A stretch of DNA of 64,000 nt. Origin: an uncultured Nitrososphaerales archaeon (GTDB lineage: Archaea > Thermoproteota > Nitrososphaeria > Nitrososphaerales > Nitrososphaeraceae). The position numbers were made by a program, and so were the translations under genes. The stretch spans positions 1,472,001 to 1,536,000 of the forward strand of contig CAVOHZ010000010.1 in assembly GCA_963695855.1 (NCBI GenBank), given 5' to 3'. Positions 2,263 through 53,357 of the stretch are shown here, in pieces (position 1 is the stretch's first letter; every line of letters begins with the position of its first letter). Under the pieces are notes generated by a model. That model saw nothing but the letters and a program-made list of their open reading frames with translations, was not told the DNA's origin and ran no database searches.

Positions 2263-3408
2263 TTATGATGATATAGCACAAGAATTAGGACCTGCTTCCA
2301 AGTCTGGCATTTCCATTTCGTCATGTGTAGGCATTTTTTTGTTAATTGATATTATAGTCTTATAATTCATAGGTCGTGGGGGTAATGTATCAATTACAAA
2401 TTTAATAAATTCATTCCTGGGCATAGATAGAAGTTTTACCTTGTTGATTATTGAACCAATAGTATCTGATATAGGAATGACATGTTTTAAAGTGATTGAA
2501 GTTCCATTAAAATGTGCAGGAAGAATTACGGTGTTCATTGGAAATTTGAGGATTTTTTGATGGTAGGAATTATATAGCATTTCTGCAAATTGACTAGCTT
2601 GATCTCGCAAATCTGGTCTTCCGATACCATCAACGAAAAGTGTATCTCCAGTAAATAAATAACTATTTGGAGTATCATTGTTATCAATATTGATATTGTT
2701 ATTATCAGTATAATTATGTTCTAGAATAAAAGACATGCTACCGTTTGTGTGTCCTGGTGTATGAATTGCTTTCAATTCAACATTTTGGCCTATGAATATA
2801 ACATCTCCATCTTGGATGTACTTTATATTATCAAGATCAGATTTGCTGAAATCATAATCTTCATATGAACTAAAATATGCAAAACAATTTTCGGAGTCAG
2901 TATCCTTTTTTTTATCTTTCATCAATCTAGCAACTCCCGAAACATGATCTGCATGTTGATGAGTGTCGATTATTTTGGTTATTTTTAATTTATTTTCATT
3001 TGCAATCCTAAGAAAAGACTCTTCAATTTCACGACTTGGATCTATAATTGCTGCTGTTTTATCTTGTTTGGAAGAAATAATATAGCCGATACATCCTTTC
3101 GATATTCTTCTTATTTGCCATATCTGAAATGGAGCATTTTTAGAAACAGGAACCTCTGCAATGTCAGATACTTTATTCCAGCCTGCCATTCCACCCCTGA
3201 CACTTTTAACATTGTAGCCCAGTTGATTTAACAATTTTGCAGCTATTAGAGATCTGTTTCCATGTGCACAAATTGTTACAATTTCTTTATCTTTTGGAAT
3301 TTCTTTTAAGAAGTTAGATGTATTTCCAAATAAACGATCAACAGGGATTAATTTTGGATTCTCATGTTTCTCATAAGATATTCTCCAAGATTCATATTCT
3401 GCAGGTGT
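2263..3408 (-). CDS. Rhodanese + metallo-beta-lactamase-fold fusion (persulfide dioxygenase/sulfurtransferase-like), 5'-truncated
   Basis: Rhodanese loop CAHGNRS; MBL motifs THQHADH, HTPGHT, TGDTLF, PAH. The sequence upstream of TPAEY is terminase-derived on the opposite strand. Confidence 0.85.
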   Translation of the reverse strand, partial: TPAEYESWRISYEKHENPKLIPVDRLFGNTSNFLKEIPKDKEIVTICAHGNRSLIAAKLLNQLGYNVKSVRGGMAGWNKVSDIAEVPVSKNAPFQIWQIRRISKGCIGYIISSKQDKTAAIIDPSREIEESFLRIANENKLKITKIIDTHQHADHVSGVARLMKDKKKDTDSENCFAYFSSYEDYDFSKSDLDNIKYIQDGDVIFIGQNVELKAIHTPGHTNGSMSFILEHNYTDNNNINIDNNDTPNSYLFTGDTLFVDGIGRPDLRDQASQFAEMLYNSYHQKILKFPMNTVILPAHFNGTSITLKHVIPISDTIGSIINKVKLLSMPRNEFIKFVIDTLPPRPMNYKTIISINKKMPTHDEMEMPDLEAGPNSCAISS

Positions 3409-4232
3409 GCCTTTTGGCATTGGGACGTAACACAGCATAGAGATAAATATGTTCTAACTAATGGTAATTGTTGTTTTCAGCATATTTTAGGACTATCTAA
3501 AGACAATAAAACAGGTAAAGAGAATCCATCATTTGACTATCAAAAAATAATTCTTGATTCATTACAATACAATAGAAGTCTATTCATTCTCAAATCCACC
3601 TGACTTGGTATAACGGAATTATTTTTGAGATATATGGCTTGGTTATGTTTAAAAGATAATACTTATCAAAATAGTCAGTTCGTTATCGTAACTGGTCCAA
3701 ATTGGGATTTATCCAAGAAACTTATTAAACGATTAAAAATGTTGTTTGAACCTTTAGACATATTTTTTGATAGCAAGAAAACATTACTGAATCTAAATGG
3801 TGTAACTATCGAATCATTCCCATCACATCACGTAGACTCTTTTAGATCATTGGATAACCCCAAGTTTATTCTGTTGGATGAATGTGACTTCTTTTCAAAG
3901 GGTCAACAGGAAGATGTTAGGGCCGTTGCAGAAAGGTACATCGCCAAATCTAATCCCTTTATTGTTATGGTATCAACGCCCAATGAACCAGGAGGCCTCA
4001 TGGAATCCATAGAGAAGGAACCGGAAGATACCTGCCTATATAAACGATTAAAACTAGATTATAGGTATGGACTTTATCGAATATATTCGAAAGAAGACAT
4101 CGAAAAAGCGAAACAGTCACCGTCCTTTGATAGAGAGTACGACTTAAAGTATCTTGGTAAGATCGGTAATGTATTCGCACTTGCAGATATTGATAAAGCG
4201 ATAGAACTAGGAAACGCAACACTGCAGGACCA

Positions 4233-5242
4233 TGCCTTGTTGCACAACTTGTTCTTCTCAACACATTTAGCTAACCAATTCTAGTCATATTATGTGAACT
4301 GGAGAAATTACAACGAATCTCTTGTTAAACGTGGCGAGGTATTACTGGATTTTGATATTATAGATAACTGGAATACTGAACTAGAGAAGATGAATAAGGA
4401 AAAGGAAGGTAGGAAATTCGTATATCCAGATTCATTTGTCAAGTTATTGGGATACATGAGAGCATACTTTCACTTACCCTACAGACAAACTGAAGGAGTA
4501 GTAAGAGAACATGCTTCAAACACTTTGCCATCAATTCCAGATTATAGTAACATTAGCAGAAGAATAAATAGACTGGATATCAAGATTTCTGATGATATAA
4601 CCAAATCTAACTTGCATGATGATAATTTTGTTATTGCAATTGATTCTACCGGTATAAAGGTATCTAAGAGGGGTGAATGGATTAGACACAAGTGGAATGT
4701 AAAAAGAGGATATCTAAAGATACATTTAGCAGTCGATATAAAAAAGAAGAGAATTCTATCATTAGATGTTACTAGTGAAGAAGTACATGATGTAAAAGTA
4801 CTTCCAAAATTGGTTGATTATATAGCAATAAAACAGAATAAGGTAATAGATACTGCTATCATGGATGGTTCCTATGATAGCAACAAGATCTTTCAGTTTC
4901 TATCATTTAAAGGCATACAACCAGCAATAAAGGTAAGAAAGAATTCTAGATGCAGAAAGACCAATCATTACCTTAGAAACAAGATGGTGAAAATGCAGAA
5001 GAATGATTTGCAAGAATGGAAAGATAGTGTACGCTATGGACAAAGATGGATGGTAGAATCTGTTTTTTCCTCTATGAAGAGAATGTTTGGTGAATATGTT
5101 ACTGCTATCAGGTTAGAGAACATGATAAGAGAGATAATGTTGAAAGCATCGTTGTATAACTGGTTTCAAAGTATAACTGTTACATAATTATCAATTATAT
5201 AATAATGAGAACGATTGGTTAAACGAGTTATGCAACAAACCA
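4233..5242 (+). mobile_element. IS5-family insertion sequence (ISH1-like), 1010 bp
   Basis: Imperfect TIRs TGCCTTGTTGCACAACT / AGTTATGCAACAAACCA; 8-bp target duplication CAGGACCA at 4225-4232 and 5243-5250. Confidence 0.93.
4294..5187 (+). CDS. IS5-family DDE transposase, intact
   Basis: NWRNYNESLVKRGE N-terminus; AIDSTG, MDGSYD and RWMVESVFS DDE motifs. Confidence 0.95.
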   Translation: MNWRNYNESLVKRGEVLLDFDIIDNWNTELEKMNKEKEGRKFVYPDSFVKLLGYMRAYFHLPYRQTEGVVREHASNTLPSIPDYSNISRRINRLDIKISDDITKSNLHDDNFVIAIDSTGIKVSKRGEWIRHKWNVKRGYLKIHLAVDIKKKRILSLDVTSEEVHDVKVLPKLVDYIAIKQNKVIDTAIMDGSYDSNKIFQFLSFKGIQPAIKVRKNSRCRKTNHYLRNKMVKMQKNDLQEWKDSVRYGQRWMVESVFSSMKRMFGEYVTAIRLENMIREIMLKASLYNWFQSITVT

Positions 5243-6595
5243 CAGGACCAGACAATAAATCCCTACTGTCTGGACATAGGTGGAATTGATTTTGGCTTCT
5301 CTACATCCATTACAACTATATACATTGGTGAAGTCGATACAGAAAACCAAATAGTTAAAATCGTTATAGGAGAGGAATATTACAAAACAACTCCTTCTGT
5401 AATCGGTGATCGTATATTTCAACTCCATACTGAAATCCCTAATCTATGGTGGTTTGTGGATGGAAGTAATCGGGCTGCCGTTAATGAATGTAAATCCAAA
5501 TTCGGTGAGTTTAGACTGGGACCGCTCCGAAGACATAAATCCTGAATCCAACTTTGTGATATCTGTATCCTTTGCAAAGGAACATAAACAAATGTTGGAA
5601 CACACATATCAACTTTTAACAAAACAGAAACTTGCTATACCCTCCAAATTTGATAGATTAATCCTGTCACTAAAGACCGCTTACGCTAATGAATGGAACC
5701 TTGACAAAAATGTGAGTGTCCACAACGATGACTTCGACGCGCTTCGTTTGTTATTAAAAGGAGCTAAATTCGTCACCAGTGAATAATAATAGCGGGGTAC
5801 ACAAACGTTGCTTATCATCTTAAATGACCAGTTCTGGCGTTCTCCAATGCACTATATAATTTATCTAAATGATCTGATTTCAAATACAGTGTAACACTGA
5901 AATGATTATCTCCCATTTGTTTATTCAAAATTAAGATCAACGATTTCTTTTTTTTATGGCAAAAACATACTGTAACAATATCCGCATGGTTCGGCATTTA
6001 TTCAAAATGGAATATAGCAATTAATCATTCGTAATAACCATTCTTCATTATCAGGGTTTCAAGTTATTAGGGAGAAAGAAAGGAGACAAATTATTTATAT
6101 TGCTAAATGATAAAATTGGAAATAAATGGAATCTCTGATTCCATCAAAGGTCATAGTTTCCTCGTTTTATTATCTTTTCTTGTTCTAATACTTTATTCGG
6201 GTCCAACTAAACCAAAATCATCATTAATAACCCCTATCAGAATAAATCCTATAAATGCAAGTGAACCCACAGTAATTATATATTGTAATATTTTATTTTT
6301 ATCAATTTTTGTTTTTAAAGAAAACAAACTCATGTTATCTATGTACAACTAAAAGTACTATACACATATTAATTTTTTAAGATTTAATAATGTTATATAA
6401 TAATGGTATATTATTAAGTAGAAATATTCTATGTTAGAATTTGTTAAGCGCCCATATTCTTTATATGAAAACGTTCTTGATACTGATTATATTCAGGATC
6501 TTCCATCGTTATGACTTTAAATCCAGTTTCATATAATCTTTTAATTAAACGAATATTTTAATATTCGAAAGTAGAATCCACATCTGATGGACGAA

Positions 6596-26845: not shown

Positions 26846-28789
26846 GGTGGACTACCCTCCCGCCATTCGCCTTTCTCCCCAAATTGATAGTGTATCTCAT
26901 CCGCCGCTTCGGCTCCCTCGTCACTTTTTTCAAAATCAGGGGTACCCCCTTCCTCAGATGTCTTCACACTATTCACGCCTTCACCTTCCTCTTCGGGCTC
27001 TGATTCTGACTCTTCATCATCATCTTCTGATTCTTCTGATGATGATTGAGTATGATTGAGTAGTTGTTGTTGTTATTTCCTTAACAATTATTCTGGTTTT
27101 ATCATTCTCTATATCCGACTTTACCAGTTCCTTAATTACGGTACGGTCAAATACCAAGATGTTTCCTTTATCGCCATGCTTTATACTTGCACCAAAGCAA
27201 TCACAAACCATGCCGGATATCGTTGTCCTGTATAAAGTCCCATAATCGTCTGTATGAAATTCATTAGGCTTATGCAGGTCTGGCAGTCCTGGAATCTCGT
27301 TGATTATTGCCTTCCAAAAGTCTAGAGAAGATACTTGATTCGTATTCTCGGTTAATTTATCAATTATTGGCAGTAGAACGGATTCGATTGATGATTGTTT
27401 TTTATTATTCTTGATGTCCAAAAATGTTTGGAGCGTCTCAACTACTTCATTCTGACATTTGCATCCATGAAAGAGTTGGACGCAGTATTTTACAAGTTGC
27501 CTATCCCTTCCTTCAACTCCTATATCTAAATCTGGAATCATCTCCTTGAAATGCATTAATCTGTAAACCAGCAACAACTTTCGAAAGTTCATAATCTCCT
27601 GCAGCAATCTCTTATTATCGGGTCCGCCTGTGTTAGTAGGATTCAGGACTTCCAGGATATCATGTTTTATACTTCCCTTGAAACAGTTGATAGAAAAGAT
27701 TCTCGAATTAACACCTTTTGCAATTGATTGATTCAGTGACCTTTCAGATATAATTATTTTAGGACAGTATGTAAAGTGGCGTTCAGATTTTGATGTGTAT
27801 TGGTTGATTTTAGGAGTCCATCCTCCATATGAGAAACCCGTCTTCAATACTGCCATTAATTCAGGCGACTTGTCTATCTTGTCAGCCTCTTCCAGTACCA
27901 TGGTACACTGCATAGACTCCACCATTCCTAGCGATCTAAATAAGTTGGGTGCGCTTGGGTCTGTCATTACTGCGGCCCTATACGCTAACCCCCTAAGTGT
28001 CTCTGCAATAGACGTCTTACCGCTTCCATTACCACCAACCAGATAAAGATAATGAGTTGTTGAGAACCTATCTTGAAAGTGTGAGGTGATTATGTTTATT
28101 GCTATTAATTTTAATTTGTGTGGTAACTGGTTGTTATATCTAGAAACTATTTTGTAACATGTCTTATAGAGATAATCTCGGTCTATGTCGTTATCTTCAA
28201 TGAACCTGGCGATACCGTTAATCTCATCCAGACTATCAAATTCATAAGGTAAGTGTGGACATTCTTCTATTGCCGGAGGTACTAGGATTCTAGTGGCCTC
28301 TTCTATCTTATCAATTCCTTCAAATGTTCCTGTATTATTGTTGAATCTTATGTATGTCGCGAATCCTGCAATAAACACAGATTCATGCAGTTCACCTCTT
28401 CCCATCTCGGAGTATTTGAAAGTTGAAATGAGTTGCTTTGGTTTTTCTTCGTCTTCCTCTTGTGTCTGTTCTTTAGACTTATTATTACTAGTGTTATTAG
28501 GAGATGTTAAAATATCCTCATTATCGTTCAGGAATCTGTAAAATATTGACCTCTGTGTCTTATCGGTGTACCCATATACCTGGGCTTGGTCCCACACTAT
28601 CTTGATATTACGTGGCCAATCATCTATTATCGGTGTAAATACTATATCGGCGTTTATCTTTCCATTTAATGATATTTTTACACGGTTTCTATCAGGATAA
28701 TAAAACCCCTCTTTAATCAATTCGCTATTCTTGACTTCTGGACTTTGCTTTAATTCTCTAACGTTATTATTTTCTTCGTTGGTAGTCAA
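26839..28789 (-). CDS. P-loop ATPase / putative replicative helicase; acidic tail frameshifted by a 10-bp duplication at 27043-27062
   Basis: GGNGSGKT Walker A, VLEEAD Walker B; the tail in the alternate frame matches the end of the B copy (YQFGEKGEWREG). Confidence 0.8.
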
Positions 28790-29043
28790 CTGAAAAACAC
28801 CCCTTCTAGTAGCGCTTTACCAGACATGATTTCGTAATTGTACTTTATTCCGCTATCTTTACAAACCCAACACGGACATTTGGACCTGGTAATTATTGTC
28901 TTTCTACTACCATTGTTAGTTTCTTGTGTAAACTGACTTACTTTAGGTAAGTTTAATAAATTGTTTTGGGTATCAATAATCACAAGTTCGCCATTACTCG
29001 TTTGTCCACTGGATTTCTTGCCAGTGGCCTTTTTTATCCTCAA
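28786..29043 (-). CDS. Small Cys-cluster protein (CPCWVC), first gene of the replication operon
   Basis: Homologue at 49456..49674; GGAGG RBS. Confidence 0.75.
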   Translation of the reverse strand: MRIKKATGKKSSGQTSNGELVIIDTQNNLLNLPKVSQFTQETNNGSRKTIITRSKCPCWVCKDSGIKYNYEIMSGKALLEGVFFS

Positions 29044-29049
29044 ATTTTG

Positions 29050-29161
29050 TTACGCCCTCCGACCGATAATATTATGTCTAACAGTGTACCTAATCATCGG
29101 TTGACCTAGGACCAGCAGAGCCAACGATAATCCTAGGCCGCCGGAGGGGGTGCTAGCGTAA
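29050..29161 (-). promoter_or_regulatory. Putative structured RNA leader sequestering the RBS
   Basis: Covarying stems with G-U pairs relative to 49341-49451. Confidence 0.6.
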
Positions 29162-29358
29162 TAAATTCGCAAATATTTGCATTTTTTGACATTTTTTGAC
29201 ATTTTTTGACGAACAATTGCAGCACAATCGCAAAATACAGTACAAACCTTTAAAGGTGAATTTTTACTATCTTTCATTGACGTTCACTTCTGGTAGCGGT
29301 GCCGGTTGCTGTCGTCGTCCGTTGTTGCTGTCGTGCGTTCGCTTCGAATCACGATATT

Positions 29359-29389
29359 GGCTTTGGCCGAGGTAATGGGCGGCCAAGCC
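29359..29389 (-). promoter_or_regulatory. Conserved bulged hairpin with CCATTACC loop
   Basis: Four compensatory pair changes relative to 49116-49149. Confidence 0.65.
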
Positions 29390-29406: not shown

Positions 29407-29593
29407 TCATCCTTTACTTTCAGTCTCCAATGGTTTTGATGTTTTCTCTAAAAGTTGGAGTTACAACATCATTCAAACTATCCTATGATGTTCCCATGTT
29501 TCTGAGTCTTTGAAAATTTATATCGTCTACAAGTATGTGATGCGTTTTTTTATTATGTTTTGTTTGTTGAGAAGTAGTAATAATCGTACTCAT
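29407..29593 (-). pseudogene. RHH regulator pseudogene
   Basis: HILVDDINFQRLRNMGTS*DSLNDVV; homologue of 48911..49099. Confidence 0.75.
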
Positions 29594-29683
29594 AGTTAAA
29601 AATATTAAGAAGTAACTTACTTATTAATTATAGTTTTTGATTGATTTTTTGTCTATTTACCCATGTTAGGGGTACAAATTTCA

Positions 29684-29697
29684 GTCACAATCTATAA
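29684..29697 (+). other. att core 2 (GTCACAATCTATAA)
   Basis: 13/14 match to the reverse complement of 60458-60471. Confidence 0.75.
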
Positions 29698-48786: not shown

Positions 48787-48804
48787 GTTCTAAAACGTAA
48801 GTTT
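48787..48804 (-). other. att core 1 partner
   Basis: GTTCTAAAACGTAAGTTT is the reverse complement of 16297-16314. Confidence 0.85.
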
Positions 48805-48910
48805 ATGACGGAAATTTGTACCCTTAACGTTGGTAAAAGAGTGATATTAGACAAAAAAAACTAAAAAACGTTGAAAAACGTTGGTTTAATATTATAGTTC
48901 TGTATTAACA

Positions 48911-49099
48911 ATGTTGATGAGTCTAATAAATCCTACTATAGATTCAAATAAAACTAAAAAAAGGTATTGGCACATTCTTGTGTCCGACGAGAATCGTAAA
49001 AAATTGAAAATGCATGGCATGGCAGGAGATTCCTTCAACGATGTGATATCCAAATTGCTATCTCAAAATAATGTATTGGAGACTGATACTTCTAAATGA
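48911..49099 (+). CDS. RHH regulator
   Basis: HILVSDENRKKLKMHGMAGDSFNDVISKLL. Confidence 0.82.
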   Translation: MLMSLINPTIDSNKTKKRYWHILVSDENRKKLKMHGMAGDSFNDVISKLLSQNNVLETDTSK

Positions 49100-49115: not shown

Positions 49116-49149
49116 GGACTGGTTGGGCCATTACCCCACAACCAAGTCC
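49116..49149 (+). promoter_or_regulatory. Conserved bulged hairpin with CCATTACC loop
   Basis: Covaries with 29359-29389. Confidence 0.65.
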
Positions 49150-49340
49150 TTAAGCGCAAGTCCCTCACGAACTCCACGCAGAGCCACAACAGAATCGCCA
49201 CGCATGGCATCCCTATCAATAGTGAACGACAATGGAAGATAGTAAAAATTCGCTAATAAGTCTTCCGTACTCATTTGTCGGTTACGCACAGAATACGCTT
49301 GCAAAAATTCACAAAATCTCACAAATTTTAACAAATTTTA

Positions 49341-49451
49341 ACGCTAGCATCCCCTCCGTCGTCGTTTGTTGCGGTTTTAAGTGTTTTCCCGTGACAAACG
49401 ACAAAAAAATGAGTGAGGTACATTCGACATATTATCTGGCGGAGGGTGTAA
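49341..49451 (+). promoter_or_regulatory. Putative structured RNA leader sequestering the RBS
   Basis: CCCTCCGTC pairs with GGCGGAGGG; inner 14-bp stem with G-U pairs. Confidence 0.6.
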
Positions 49452-49455
49452 CGAT

Positions 49456-49674
49456 TTGACTAGAACTAGAAGAAAAAAGGCCGTATCTATAAAAAATAAA
49501 AATATCGATAGCATTCCAAATGATAAAAAGTTTACCTGGGCGTGGGAAACCAACAGAAAAACTATTGTTGCCAGGTCAAAGTGTCCTTGCTGGGTATGTC
49601 TGGATAGCGGGATCAAATACAACTATGAAGTTTCATCTGGTAACAAACCGTTCGAAGGAGTGTTTTTCATATGA
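49456..49674 (+). CDS. Small Cys-cluster protein (CPCWVC)
   Basis: Homologue of 28786..29043. Confidence 0.75.
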   Translation: MTRTRRKKAVSIKNKNIDSIPNDKKFTWAWETNRKTIVARSKCPCWVCLDSGIKYNYEVSSGNKPFEGVFFI

Positions 49675-51632
49675 CTGCTGCTTCAGAAGAAAATAACAAT
49701 AACGCTAGAGAATTAAAGCAAAGTCCAGAAGTCCAAAAAAGCGAACTGATTAAAGAAGCCTATTACTACCCAGATAATAATAGAGTAAAAATATCACTTA
49801 ATGGAAAGATAGACGCCGACATTGTATTTACACTGGTTATAGATGATTGGACACGCAACATAAAGATAGTAATGGACCAGGCCCAGGCATATGGGTACAC
49901 GGATAAGGCACACAGATCAATCTTTTACAGATTCATAAATGATAATGAGGACATTTTAACATCTAGTAATAATAAGGCTAAAGAAAAGCAGACACAACAG
50001 CAAGAAGAAGATGAGGAACAAAAAAAACAACTCATTCCAACCCTCAAATACTCGCAAATGGGAAAAGGTGACCTGTATGAATCCGTATTCATCGGAGATT
50101 TCCCGGCATACATAAAATATAATAGGAGCACAGGAACATTTGAAAGATATGATAAGATTGAAGAAGCAATCAGAATCCTAAGACCTCCAGCAATAGAAGA
50201 GTGTCCACACCTACCTTATGAATTTGATAGTCTGGATCAGATTAATGGTATTGCCAAGTTTATTGAAGATAACAACATAGACCGAGATTATTTGTACTAT
50301 ACATGTTACAAAATAGTCTCCAAATATAACAACCAATTACCACACAAATTAAAATTAATAACAATAAACATAATCGCCTCACACTTTCAGGATATGTTCT
50401 CAACAACGCACTACCTTTATCTGGTTGGTGGTAATGGAAGCGGTAAAAGTTCTATTGCAGAGACACTTAGAGGACTTGCTTATAGGGCCGCAGTAATGAC
50501 GGATCCAAGTGCACCCAACTTATTCAGATTGTTGGGAATGGTGGAGTCTATGTAGTGTACCATGGTACTGGAAGAGGCCGACAAAATAGACAAGTCCACA
50601 GATTTAATGGCAATTTTGAAGACAGGTTTTGCATTTGGTGGGACTACTCCCAAAGTCAATCCCTACACAAACCTATCTGAACGATTCTTTACATACTGTC
50701 CTAAAATAATAGTGTCGGAAAGGTCATTAAATCAATCAATTGCAAAAGGTGTTAATTCGAGAATCTTTTCTATCAACTGTTTCAAGGGAAGCATAAAACA
50801 TGATATCCTAGAAATCCTAAATCCTACTAATACAGGTGGACCAGAGAACAAAAGGCTGCTGCAAGAGATTATGAACTTTCGAAAGTTGTTGCTGGTTTAC
50901 AGATTGATGCACTTCAAGGATATGATTCCAGACTTAGATATAGGTGTAGAAGGTAGGGATAGACAACTTGTAAAATACTGTATACAACTCTTTCATGGGT
51001 GCAAATGTCAGGATGAAGTAATTAAAACCGTTCAAAAATTCTTGGATACCAAGAACAATAAAAAACAAGCATCAATTGAATCCGTCTTACTACCGCTAAT
51101 TGATAAACTAATCGAGACCAAGAAAACGAATCAAGTTTCATCTTTAGACTTCTGGAAAGCAGTAATTAACGAGATTCCAGGACTACCAGACCTGCATAAA
51201 CCTAATGAATTTCATACAGACGATTACGGGACATTATACAGAACAACGATATCAGGTGTGGTTTGTGATTGCTTTGGTGCAAGTATAAAGCATGGCGATA
51301 AAGGAAACATCTTGGTATTTGACCGTACCGTAATTAAGGAACTGGTAAAGTCGGATATAGAGAATGATAAAACCAGAATAGTCGTTAACGAAATACCTCC
51401 TGGTCAATCAGTAGTGGAAGAAGAATATGAAGAATATGAAGATGACGAGTACGATGAACCTGAAGGCCTGAATAGTCTGAAGGCATCTGGGGAAGGGGGT
51501 ACCCCTGATTTGGAAAAAAATGACGAGGGAGCCGAAGAGCAGGAGGAGACAGAATCAGAGCCACTAGAACCAAATGATACATATTACCAGTTTGGGAAGA
51601 AAGGCCAATGGCGTGAGGGTATTCCACCTTGA
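49671..51632 (+). pseudogene. P-loop ATPase/helicase with a premature TAG at 50553-50555
   Basis: CAG in copy A is TAG here; both halves stay in frame. Confidence 0.88.
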
Positions 51633-51994
51633 TAAATCCTACATTAACGCTAACACCCAAGCAAAAGAAAGAGTTGATGGCAGGGGAAAGGGAAGCAGGA
51701 GCACCATCCTTTTTTAGTTACGGTTATCTTGATACTGAGAATAGACAAAAGATTCTTGAATACCTGAATGAAGGTAAAAGATTGAGGTGTCATCATCAAG
51801 ATTGTCAGAGTTTCAATAGTGAGTTCATAACCCTTTATGATTATAATAGACACTGTCATAGCAATCATCCTAGACAACCGCTACATCCATCACTACAGTA
51901 TATCGAAGACTTGACTACAACATATTTTATTGCTGTAAATGAAAAAGCCTGGCGTAAATCACGACTGGTACCTAGGGGTAATCCGTGGGAATGA
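51629..51994 (+). CDS. C2H2 zinc-finger protein
   Basis: Homologue of 26477..26845. Confidence 0.82.
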   Translation: MINPTLTLTPKQKKELMAGEREAGAPSFFSYGYLDTENRQKILEYLNEGKRLRCHHQDCQSFNSEFITLYDYNRHCHSNHPRQPLHPSLQYIEDLTTTYFIAVNEKAWRKSRLVPRGNPWE

Positions 51995-52215
51995 CTTCAA
52001 CAGTAGAGCAAAAAAGTTCTAAAAACACCTACCCCCCCTACCCTAGGAGCCTTCAGGCCCTTCATGCCTTCAGCCTTAGAGATCCAGAACGACCTAGACT
52101 TTCTTTTAAGACACTTCTCAAATCCGTTATTTCCAAGAACCATAATGACACCAAAGGTAAAGCAGAAGGAAGTATATTCAAAGGAACAGGCACCAGTATT
52201 TTACAAAGAGGTTAA
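51991..52215 (+). pseudogene. Frameshifted 5' fragment of an A-type primase gene
   Basis: EQKSSKNTYPP and LDFLLRHFSNPLFPRTIMTPK lie in different frames. Confidence 0.8.
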
Positions 52216-52235
52216 GAGGAAGATAAAAAATAATT

Positions 52236-53357
52236 ATGATGTTGTCGTCTAGTCAACAGGAACGGCAGAAACAAGAAGAAGAAGAGATACAGGCAGGCCT
52301 GGACTTCTTACTTTCCCACTTTTCCAGTCCACTGTTCCCCAGAACAATATCAACACAGAAAACCGAAGATAGCCAGATACCTGTAAACAGTATGGAAGAG
52401 GCATTAACTTATTACAGAAAATCAGAATTCAAAGATTGCAAGATTAATGCCTTTTACTATTCGAAATTGGAAGACACAACAATAGGAGGTTTATTCTGGC
52501 ATCCAGATTTAATATTCATTGATTTAGATTTACAGGATTTTAAGAGTGAAAAGGCTTTAAAGTTTGCACTTGCCAAGACTTTGAACAATATTGCCGATGA
52601 ATTGGGCAGTAATTCCGCAGTTCCTACAGTACTTCACAGCGGGGGAGGATACCACGTCATACAACCGGTAGACTGTCCGGTACCGTTAGAGAGTATCCAG
52701 AATGTAAAAGAGTTCATGGAGATACCGAACCCTTCAGAAATATTTTTGAGGTTTGCCAAAGACTTTCTATCGAATGGAAAGGCAGACAAGAAGAATAATC
52801 CTTCCTTCAAATCCTGCATGTTAAGGATTCCAGGTTCCATTAATTCCAGACGTAATGGCAAGAACGTTAGAATTATTCAACGTTGGAACCGATACAGGCC
52901 ACGAATAACGAAAGAGTTGATAATAGAGTTCCAGGGCTGGTTGATACAGAAGAAGATACACAAAAGGATAGAACAGGAAAAAATAGATAGGGAGAGACAA
53001 GCAAGAAGGAAGCAATTACCTGCAGGTTACAATATCAATTATTACGAGTGGATAGAAAAATTATTAGATACAGGAATAGAAGACTGCAGGAAAACATGTG
53101 TAGGTTTGATTCTAGCACCCTATCTTATTCATGTGAAGGGATTATCGTATGAGACTTCCAGACAAATAATCAAAAACTGGTTACAGAAATGTGACTCCCT
53201 TAGGAAGTTAGATAGAGGTTTTGATTCCAGAATAAGAGACGCTTTAAGAAGTTCACAAAGGAAACAGATTCCCCCAATGTCCAGACAGAAAATTAAATTG
53301 GATAATGCTTATGAAACACTTCATAATATATTATCTAATAAGGGAATTAACGGTTAG
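52236..53357 (+). CDS. AEP primase with PriX-like C-terminal domain
   Basis: FIDLD, HSGGGYH, LRIPGSIN, WIEKLL. Confidence 0.85.
   Translation: MMLSSSQQERQKQEEEEIQAGLDFLLSHFSSPLFPRTISTQKTEDSQIPVNSMEEALTYYRKSEFKDCKINAFYYSKLEDTTIGGLFWHPDLIFIDLDLQDFKSEKALKFALAKTLNNIADELGSNSAVPTVLHSGGGYHVIQPVDCPVPLESIQNVKEFMEIPNPSEIFLRFAKDFLSNGKADKKNNPSFKSCMLRIPGSINSRRNGKNVRIIQRWNRYRPRITKELIIEFQGWLIQKKIHKRIEQEKIDRERQARRKQLPAGYNINYYEWIEKLLDTGIEDCRKTCVGLILAPYLIHVKGLSYETSRQIIKNWLQKCDSLRKLDRGFDSRIRDALRSSQRKQIPPMSRQKIKLDNAYETLHNILSNKGING

Follow-up and report, generated by a model that had tools for sequence, protein, structure and literature searches.

In plasmid R1 (tap/repA) and in the IncI-alpha, IncB and IncK plasmids (repY/repZ), the ribosome-binding site of the rep gene is closed by mRNA structure and is opened by a translated leader ORF. 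The Sulfolobus plasmid pRN1 reportedly produces counter-transcripts. Its RHH copy-control gene orf56 is co-transcribed with the primase-type gene orf904, and the putative DNA origin of the pRN plasmids is a ~100-nt stem-loop with conserved structure and flanks and variable sequence (PMC4234260, cited in part). In pMV158 the RHH repressor CopG is combined with the antisense RNAII, acting on repB translation (PMC4485353 and PMC5717011, both in part), and termination-reinitiation coupling at overlapping stop and start codons was described in archaea (PMC6728339, in part).

The window analysed here is a stretch of 64,000 nucleotides (G000:C10:1472001-1536000) of an uncultured Nitrososphaerales archaeon with a 3.55-Mb genome of ~31% G+C. 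The SSU rRNA of this genome reaches 1491 bits with the archaeal model versus 1095 bits with the bacterial model, in agreement with an archaeal host. We detected related leaders in three integrated elements (A and B in the window, C on the same contig), each predicted to fold over the Shine-Dalgarno (SD) sequence before the TTG start of a gene for a CxCxxC protein. As in tap/repA (CopA) and repY/repZ (Inc RNA/RNAI), mRNA structure is predicted to close the ribosome-binding site of the first replication gene. A short open frame upstream, with a putative product that is not conserved, would correspond to the leader ORF of these plasmids; it crosses the helices and stops on the TTG in B and 7 nt before it in A. 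The leader stem-loop differs between the elements, as it does between compatible relatives of the repY/repZ type (PMC10724649, in part). In contrast to these plasmids, the host is an archaeon, the elements are integrated and carry PriX-primase or MCM genes, the leader ORF of copy C ends ~75 nt before the start, and there is no sequence relation; antisense RNA and an activating pseudoknot are features of the plasmids, whereas only the structure and the open frame are seen here.

The likeness to pMV158 consists of a small putative RHH-type gene at the operon head and a non-coding stretch before the rep genes as the predicted site of translational control; however, the RHH-like proteins here score under the family threshold, their gene is separated from the rep genes by ~350 nt instead of a short spacer, and antisense RNAII belongs to pMV158. 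With pRN1 the locus shares the archaeal element, a replication operon probably headed by an RHH gene, and a stem-loop with conserved structure and flanks and unconserved sequence, but the pRN1 stem-loop is downstream of rep and is thought to act as DNA, while the stem-loop here is over the SD and start and is biased to one strand. Archaeal coupling has its parallel in 4-nt overlaps, of the CxCxxC gene with the next gene in all three elements and of the leader ORF with the TTG start in B (TTGA), suggesting that initiation at the CxCxxC gene could gate the replication genes by coupling (PMC6728339, in part). The described cases are ordinary gene pairs, whereas here a non-conserved leader ORF is upstream and the downstream site is closed by a helix.

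Predicted helices of the three leaders

The features of the leaders are listed below (positions of the window unless a contig or locus is named).

49341-49458 (also given as 49338-49458), plus strand: leader of element B (covariance model R1, 123.8 bits)
29041-29163, minus strand: leader of element A (covariance model R1, 103.3 bits)
C10:485353-485472 (= L013:11353-11472), minus strand: leader of element C, more diverged (BLAST of the region against the own genome)
49352-49360, plus strand: 5' arm of helix P1 in B, CCCTCCGTC (fold and alignment)
49438-49446, plus strand: 3' arm of P1 in B, GGCGGAGGG, with GGAGG at 49441-49445, 15 nt before the start (fold and P(unpaired))
29140-29148, minus strand: 5' arm of P1 in A, CCCTCCGGC (alignment)
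29055-29063, minus strand: 3' arm of P1 in A, GTCGGAGGG; its GGAGG (29056-29060) lies 17 nt upstream of the TTG (29043)
49361-49402, plus strand: P2 hairpin of B, 14-bp stem with 2 G.U pairs, 14-nt loop (RNA fold)
29103-29139, minus strand: P2 hairpin of A, 12-bp stem with 3 G.U pairs (RNA fold)
49416-49436, plus strand: conserved unpaired segment of B (AGGTACA / GACAT / TATTATC), only partly conserved in C
49300-49340, plus strand: A-rich direct repeats of B with a period of ~10 nt, directly 5' of the leader (read from the sequence)

A first reading of this DNA, made from the letters only (the sequence-only reading), had described conserved motifs in A and B, and all of them were found in place when the sequence was reread. 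In B the 5' motif ACGCTAGCA(T/C)CCCCTCCG spans 49341-49358 and CGGAGGG(T/C)GTAAC spans 49440-49452, with the TTG start at 49456; the corresponding positions in A are 29159-29142, 29061-29049 and 29043; AGGTACA, GACAT and TATTATC are present in both. Copy C has TGTATC where A and B have TATTATC, and the distance from the P1 5' arm to the conserved TATC is 70 nt in A, 69 nt in B and 68 nt in C. Across the 3.55-Mb genome the 3' motif CGGRRGGYGTAAC was found at the three leader sites only. A perfect 17-nt match to the middle segment of B (ATGAGTGAGGTACATTC) was observed inside the host aRF1 gene (G000:C3:49866-49882); it shares the reading frame with the B leader ORF (MSEVHS) and is probably due to chance (E 0.004).

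The nested helices proposed for A and B were reproduced by RNA folding, and C added a third instance with the same architecture. The predicted fold has -41.0 kcal/mol in B (z -3.8 to -4.0, equalled by 0 of 200 shuffles), about -40.2 kcal/mol in A (z -2.4, 5 of 200) and -32.3 kcal/mol in C (z -2.8). P1 has 9 bp in each copy, formed by a C-rich 5' arm and a 3' arm bearing GGAGG, 78-79 nt apart: CCCUCCGGC / GUCGGAGGG in A, CCCUCCGUC / GGCGGAGGG in B and CCUCUCGGC / GUCGGGAGG in C. The GYGUAAC after the SD is paired as well, and the wobble that was said to flip between the copies does so (G.U in A, U.G in B). The P2 hairpin directly follows the P1 5' arm on its 3' side in A, B and C, so placed that P1 stacks on P2; in C it is composed of 7 bp, an internal loop and 6 bp more. 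As had been noticed for A and B, the P2 sequences at this same position are unrelated to each other, now across all three copies, and no second copy of any P2 was found in the own genome.

On the three-way alignment, 33 of 33 cells of P1 pair and 3 pairs are altered on both sides, while only 45-55% of cells pair in the slid-register control. The observed covariation was reached in 23 of 500 shuffles, approximately the floor attainable with three sequences; the statistics are weak because there are only three copies, all from one genome. Compared to A and B, copy C has two double compensatory changes in P1 (A-U to G-C and G-C to A-U), and GGAGG is retained in C despite them, with a 1-nt shift. 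The predicted structure, its covariation, the sense-strand bias described below and the modelled burial of GGAGG are supported in silico, and the third copy strengthens them.

Relatives for a larger covariation test, which the sequence-only reading had called for, were found nowhere outside the own genome; the collections searched held 401 genomes of the order, 151 of the family, metagenome and viral contigs, and proteins. Covariance model R1 retrieved only its 3 training copies from the own genome (E up to 1) and matched 1 of 151 family genomes, the own genome. In the own genome a corrected DNA descriptor hit the three known copies and no other site, and it gave 0 matches in metagenome contigs and 0 in viral contigs; a descriptor fitting the C-type arm only matched 1 of 401 order genomes, by the own copy C, and is uninformative on the A/B type. 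The Rfam scan recommended at the same time matched no family: at gathering scores the 64-kb window gave 0 hits, and E-value mode on the three cassettes listed only mir-875 (E 0.33) and HIV-1 SL3 (E 0.4), both at chance level and far below gathering scores.

The sequence-only reading had further argued that the wobbles work on the sense strand only and thus imply RNA. The strand bias was borne out: the internal positions of P1 and P2 hold 9 G.U and 0 A.C (a strand-neutral helix count), and in each of the three copies the sense fold exceeds the antisense fold in stability by 5-7 kcal/mol, so the fold belongs to the sense strand, single-stranded. A single-strand DNA hairpin is also compatible with these counts. 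A DNA cruciform, a palindromic operator or another symmetric protein site would need an inverted repeat of equal quality on both strands and is improbable, given 9 G.U against 0 A.C and the less stable antisense fold.

The strongest rival to an mRNA structure is a DNA-level replication origin or single-strand initiation signal, in which the A-rich repeats would be iterons or bent DNA and the GGAGG in the stem would be coincidental; we consider it rather unlikely. The pRN1-type stem-loop of ~100 nt is needed for replication with its structure conserved and its sequence not, and co-resident pRN1 and pRN2 differ in it (PMC4234260, in part). Here, each of the three co-resident elements has a P2 hairpin of its own and a gene for either a PriX-domain primase or an MCM helicase, and 10-nt phased A-rich repeats are found directly 5' of all three leaders. 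The excess of G.U and the weaker antisense fold oppose a two-strand cruciform and leave the single-strand version compatible; against both versions, the pRN1 stem-loop is downstream of the rep gene, while the leader here is over the first start of the operon.

The repeats themselves consist of three perfect tandem GTCAAAAAAT units in A (29181-29210, minus strand) and of imperfect A-rich repeats in C, 10-nt periodic and similar to those of B. They could be phased A-tracts or iteron-like sites, and on the opposite strand they are T-runs resembling archaeal terminators.

Predicted ribosome-binding site and leader ORF

The host 16S rRNA 3' end (...GGAUCACCUCCU, final letters CCUCCU) indicates that an anti-SD capable of reading GGAGG exists. 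GGAGG at -21 to -13 was detected in ~2% of 1497 long ORFs, ~7-fold above background; SD-led initiation in the host genome is rare and limited to a small minority of genes, but real. In the leaders GGAGG is at -17 (A), -15 (B) and -16 (C) from TTG, and other operon genes of the elements have GGAG, GAGG or GAGGTG at -14 to -18. By our reading of the sequence, TTG is the sole canonical start upstream of the conserved domain in B, and the TTG with the R/K-rich residues following it is common to A, B and C. The DNA-origin reading has to take as coincidence a 3' arm that is exactly GGAGG, at the SD distance of this genome from a conserved TTG, in which GGAGG survives the compensatory changes of C.

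The hidden ribosome-binding site claimed by the sequence-only reading was reproduced in silico, with GGAGG located in the P1 3' arm. The predicted P(unpaired) of the SD core in A and B is <=0.002 for transcript 5' ends at -125 to -360, which include the 5' arm; for C it stays at 0.001 with 5' ends at -125 and -200 and rises to 0.12-0.17 in the longest contexts. Between -18 and -8 the leaders are 0.09-0.135 open, versus 0.13-0.73 for 17 other operon genes. When the P1 5' arm is absent from the transcript, the SD is 0.38-0.60 open. TATA-like sequences are present within or just 5' of the leader (AAATTTTAAC and TATTATC in B), and the SD would be open in a transcript begun at them, the 5' arm being absent from it. 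A promoter profile built on the regions 5' of 27 tRNA genes gave canonical TATA boxes (TTTAWATA-like at ~-32 to -25 in host tRNA genes) and did not discriminate among many AT-rich candidates.

RHH repressors bind repeated sites near their own promoters. The leader could be read as double-stranded DNA, a promoter-operator in which the conserved blocks are TATA/BRE and sites bound by the CxCxxC or the RHH-like protein. Transcription would then begin within the leader or 3' of it, the mRNA would have a short 5' leader or none, and no SD occlusion would take place. TATTATC is 20-27 nt before TTG in A and B, near the TATA position of a leaderless mRNA; however, it is not kept in C (TGTATC). The leader has a TGTAC-containing motif in inverted orientation, with further such motifs in the spacer and 5' of the RHH gene, and pRN1 ORF56 provides an example of an RHH repressor (PMC4234260, in part). 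This would leave unexplained why all three copies keep a 12-14-bp hairpin at one position with sequences unrelated to each other, the arm covariation and the mismatches that are G.U only on one strand; the other operon genes use SD-like sites, with GGAGG at the same distance here. We regard a promoter-operator as improbable.

The leader is also crossed by an open reading frame.

49232-49459, plus strand: leader ORF of B, 75 codons, through P1 and P2, with the TGA overlapping the TTG start (TTGA)
29050-29277, minus strand: leader ORF of A, 75 codons, with the stop TAA within GCGTAAC, 7 nt before TTG

In all three copies this ORF starts at a conserved ATG ~120 nt upstream, with weakly SD-like initiation signals (GTGA or GGAG); in C it has 53 codons and ends in the P2 loop, ~75 nt before TTG. 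The stretch between the conserved ATG and the last base of the P1 5' arm has 0 in-frame stops in A, B and C, and its other five frames have 2-3 stops in A, 2-4 in B and 2-5 overall. The frame was kept open in 552 (A), 1297 (B) and 648 (C) of 20000 shuffles each. The amino-acid identity is 0.42 in frame versus 0.48 and 0.39 out of frame, and the differences by codon position are 14:8:13, with no concentration at the third position.

An ordinary protein gene of 75 codons, with the motifs reflecting its coding, has the open frame in all three copies and the equal length in A and B in its favour, and we find it hardly credible. The 3' motif is read in different frames by A and B, and C reads the 5' arm in yet another frame and stops after 53 codons; in-frame identity is no higher than out-of-frame identity, third positions show no bias, and a profile search gave no Pfam family. 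The sequence-only reading had itself named short overlapping ORFs as something that might explain the conservation; the leader ORF does not account for it, since the motifs are read in different frames in the three copies. An open frame with a peptide that is apparently not conserved is the signature of a leader ORF for which translation would matter and the product would not.

Our preferred explanation, to which we give about an even chance of being right, is an mRNA structure that keeps the SD of the replication operon occluded until translation of the leader ORF opens it. The structure would act in cis at the head of the replication operon in a small family of integrated archaeal elements, on a transcript coming from upstream and probably including the RHH-like gene. 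With the 5' arm in the transcript, P1 would close the ribosome-binding site of the CxCxxC gene, and the opening of P1 would gate translation of the whole module by the 4-nt overlap with the first replication gene. The most likely opener is putative translation of the leader ORF across the P1 5' arm. A ribosome moving along it would unmask the SD and, for A and B, would also deliver ribosomes to the TTG start, so that leader ORF translation may control replication. Two properties of copy C go against the leader-ORF explanation, namely the SD predicted to be 12-17% open in the longest contexts and the end of the leader ORF ~75 nt before TTG. Further points against it are the weakly SD-like signals of the leader ORF, the rarity of SD-led initiation in this genome, the TATA-like sequences within or just 5' of the leader, the weak covariation statistics and the pRN precedent of a DNA stem-loop. 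The sequence-only reading had thought of a helper-virus factor or an antisense RNA as the trigger; the data point instead to a leader ORF that would be translated through the 5' arm.

Three other RNA devices were rejected: an RNA thermometer, for which the P1/P2 stack at ~-40 kcal/mol is too stable; a riboswitch, in view of the poor conservation of the unpaired segment in C and the zero Rfam match; and an intrinsic terminator or attenuator, the sense strand being without a T-run after P2.

Regulatory cassette and element family

The leader is located in a cassette between an RHH-like gene and the replication genes.

48911-49099, plus strand: RHH/VapB-antitoxin-like gene of B, 62 aa, at the cassette head (PF02697 19.6 bits, cut-off 27.9; weak NCBIfam PRK13696)
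49116-49149, plus strand: hairpin H1 of B, just 3' of the RHH stop codon, with the loop CCATTACC (fold of the whole spacer)
49456-49674, plus strand: TTG-start CxCxxC gene of B, 72 aa, with the stop overlapping the next ATG by 4 nt
28786-29043, minus strand: TTG-start CxCxxC gene of A, 85 aa, with a 4-nt overlap with the 589-aa P-loop gene
49671-53357, plus strand: replication genes of B, namely P-loop genes of 294 and 356 aa, a 121-aa gene and a 373-aa gene with a PriX domain

After the RHH-like gene the cassette has, in this order, the hairpin, the conserved ATG block, the 10-nt A-rich repeats and the leader. The RHH-like protein of C reaches 25.9 bits with PF02697, under the 27.9 cut-off, and gave no relevant match in PDB sequences. 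The RHH-like gene of A (29483-29593, minus strand) has an in-frame stop after 36 codons, suggesting that element A may be partly decayed. The 4-nt overlap of the CxCxxC gene with the next gene is found in A, B and C alike, and the CxCxxC protein belongs to no Pfam, PHROG or NCBIfam family. The 373-aa protein of B matches Pfam PriX (1.8e-13, 51 bits), and the Pfam matches of the P-loop proteins are weak; element C has an MCM helicase gene (L013:8791-11037, Pfam 1e-31) in place of the P-loop and PriX genes.

We additionally observed a GC-rich hairpin at the place of H1 in A (29359-29389, minus strand) and in C, with differing stems and the loop CCATTACC common to A and B; a TATA-like ATGATAATAA / TTTATAAA block precedes the H1-type hairpin. 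A conserved block with TTTGTACCC is found ~80-100 nt 5' of the RHH-like gene (48803-48836 in B; 29656-29693, minus strand, in A). TGTAC is met again in the spacer (as GTACT) and, in the opposite orientation, in the leader (AGGTACA), and these may be operator half-sites. The P-loop gene is one 589-aa ORF in A and two ORFs (294 and 356 aa) in B. A TerL-like gene (DEAD/phrog_2) was detected in the window at 3394-4245 and 5225-5765 and in at least 10 other places on contig C10 (tblastn); these copies and fragments mark a large family of integrated elements that are related to each other and of which some are decayed.

A fourth element (C10 ~1767400-1770200, outside the window) has P-loop and PriX homologues with 47-57% identity and a 55-aa RHH-like gene (judged by eye, a clearer one) overlapping the next gene by 4 nt, without the spacer, the CxCxxC gene and the leader. 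The RHH-to-replication operon is, by analogy with pRN1 (PMC4234260, in part), the probable ground plan of the element family. The leader is present with P-loop/PriX genes and with MCM and is absent from the fourth element, which argues that it travels with the regulatory cassette and not with the replication proteins. This distribution speaks against the DNA-origin reading, as the leader follows the RHH/CxCxxC cassette.

Relatives of the cassette proteins were sought in the same collections. With CxCxxC alignment A1, matches at E up to 0.01 were obtained in 6 of 401 order genomes, including the own genome; the five others were rejected as noise (E 0.002-0.009, 17-19 bits, short stretches, with stops inside three). 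The alignment gave 375 pattern stretches in metagenome contigs and 67 in viral contigs, 0 confirmed in either, and a comparison of the CxCxxC protein of A with the protein collection, at near lengths only, gave no candidate. The 589-aa P-loop protein of A was found at 3 loci in one Nitrososphaerales MAG, none of them with leader motifs; at the locus whose upstream was read (L004) an integrase/AbrB-like module is present there.

A and B are 81% identical from 49555 onward, and far greater divergence is seen across the cassette, which begins with the RHH gene and takes in the N-terminal half of the CxCxxC protein; this suggests a mosaic or heteroimmune-like module. The full replacement of P2 and the divergence of the cassette beside this 81% identity are in line with an RNA leader switched by a trans factor that reads P2, either a counter-transcript or the element's own basic CxCxxC or RHH-like protein. 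P2 would then determine incompatibility or immunity. The replacement of P2 is accounted for just as well by old mosaic recombination that involved the entire cassette. In the counter-transcript version GATAATA (the reverse of TATTATC) would be the TATA box and the T-runs opposite the A-rich repeats would be archaeal terminators. On the antisense strand an anti-P2 hairpin is followed by three T6 runs in A and, in both B and C, by runs of T3-T5; against this, the candidate antisense TATA is not kept in C and the antisense fold is weaker than the sense fold. The lack of a second complementary P2 copy in the genome rules out only a trans-encoded RNA. Plasmid precedents are available: in the I-complex an antisense stem-loop RNA sets incompatibility, with 5 nt sufficing for IncK1/IncK2 compatibility (PMC10724649, in part), and pMV158 pairs its RHH repressor with an antisense RNA blocking rep translation (PMC4485353, in part). 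We consider a switch of this kind doubtful, and quite unlikely as an account of the leader.

Possible meaning of the leader

Taken further, the RHH repressor, a leader ORF unmasking the SD and a P2 read by a counter-transcript or by the basic CxCxxC protein could together compose an RNA copy-control or immunity circuit that has converged on bacterial plasmid logic. We propose this combination tentatively, as an unlikely reading; if it is true, P2 would be the determinant permitting related elements to coexist in one archaeal cell. To our knowledge, no such circuit has previously been described for a mobile element of ammonia-oxidising archaea, and we are aware of very little on post-transcriptional control in these organisms or on the regulation of replication of their many integrated elements.

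If the leader is a DNA origin instead, the pRN-type structured origin would extend to a new phylum. If it acts as RNA, SD occlusion and unmasking by a leader ORF would extend to an archaeal lineage where SD initiation is the minority mode, and the leader would provide a compact translational operator of ~120 nt for organisms that are hard to manipulate.
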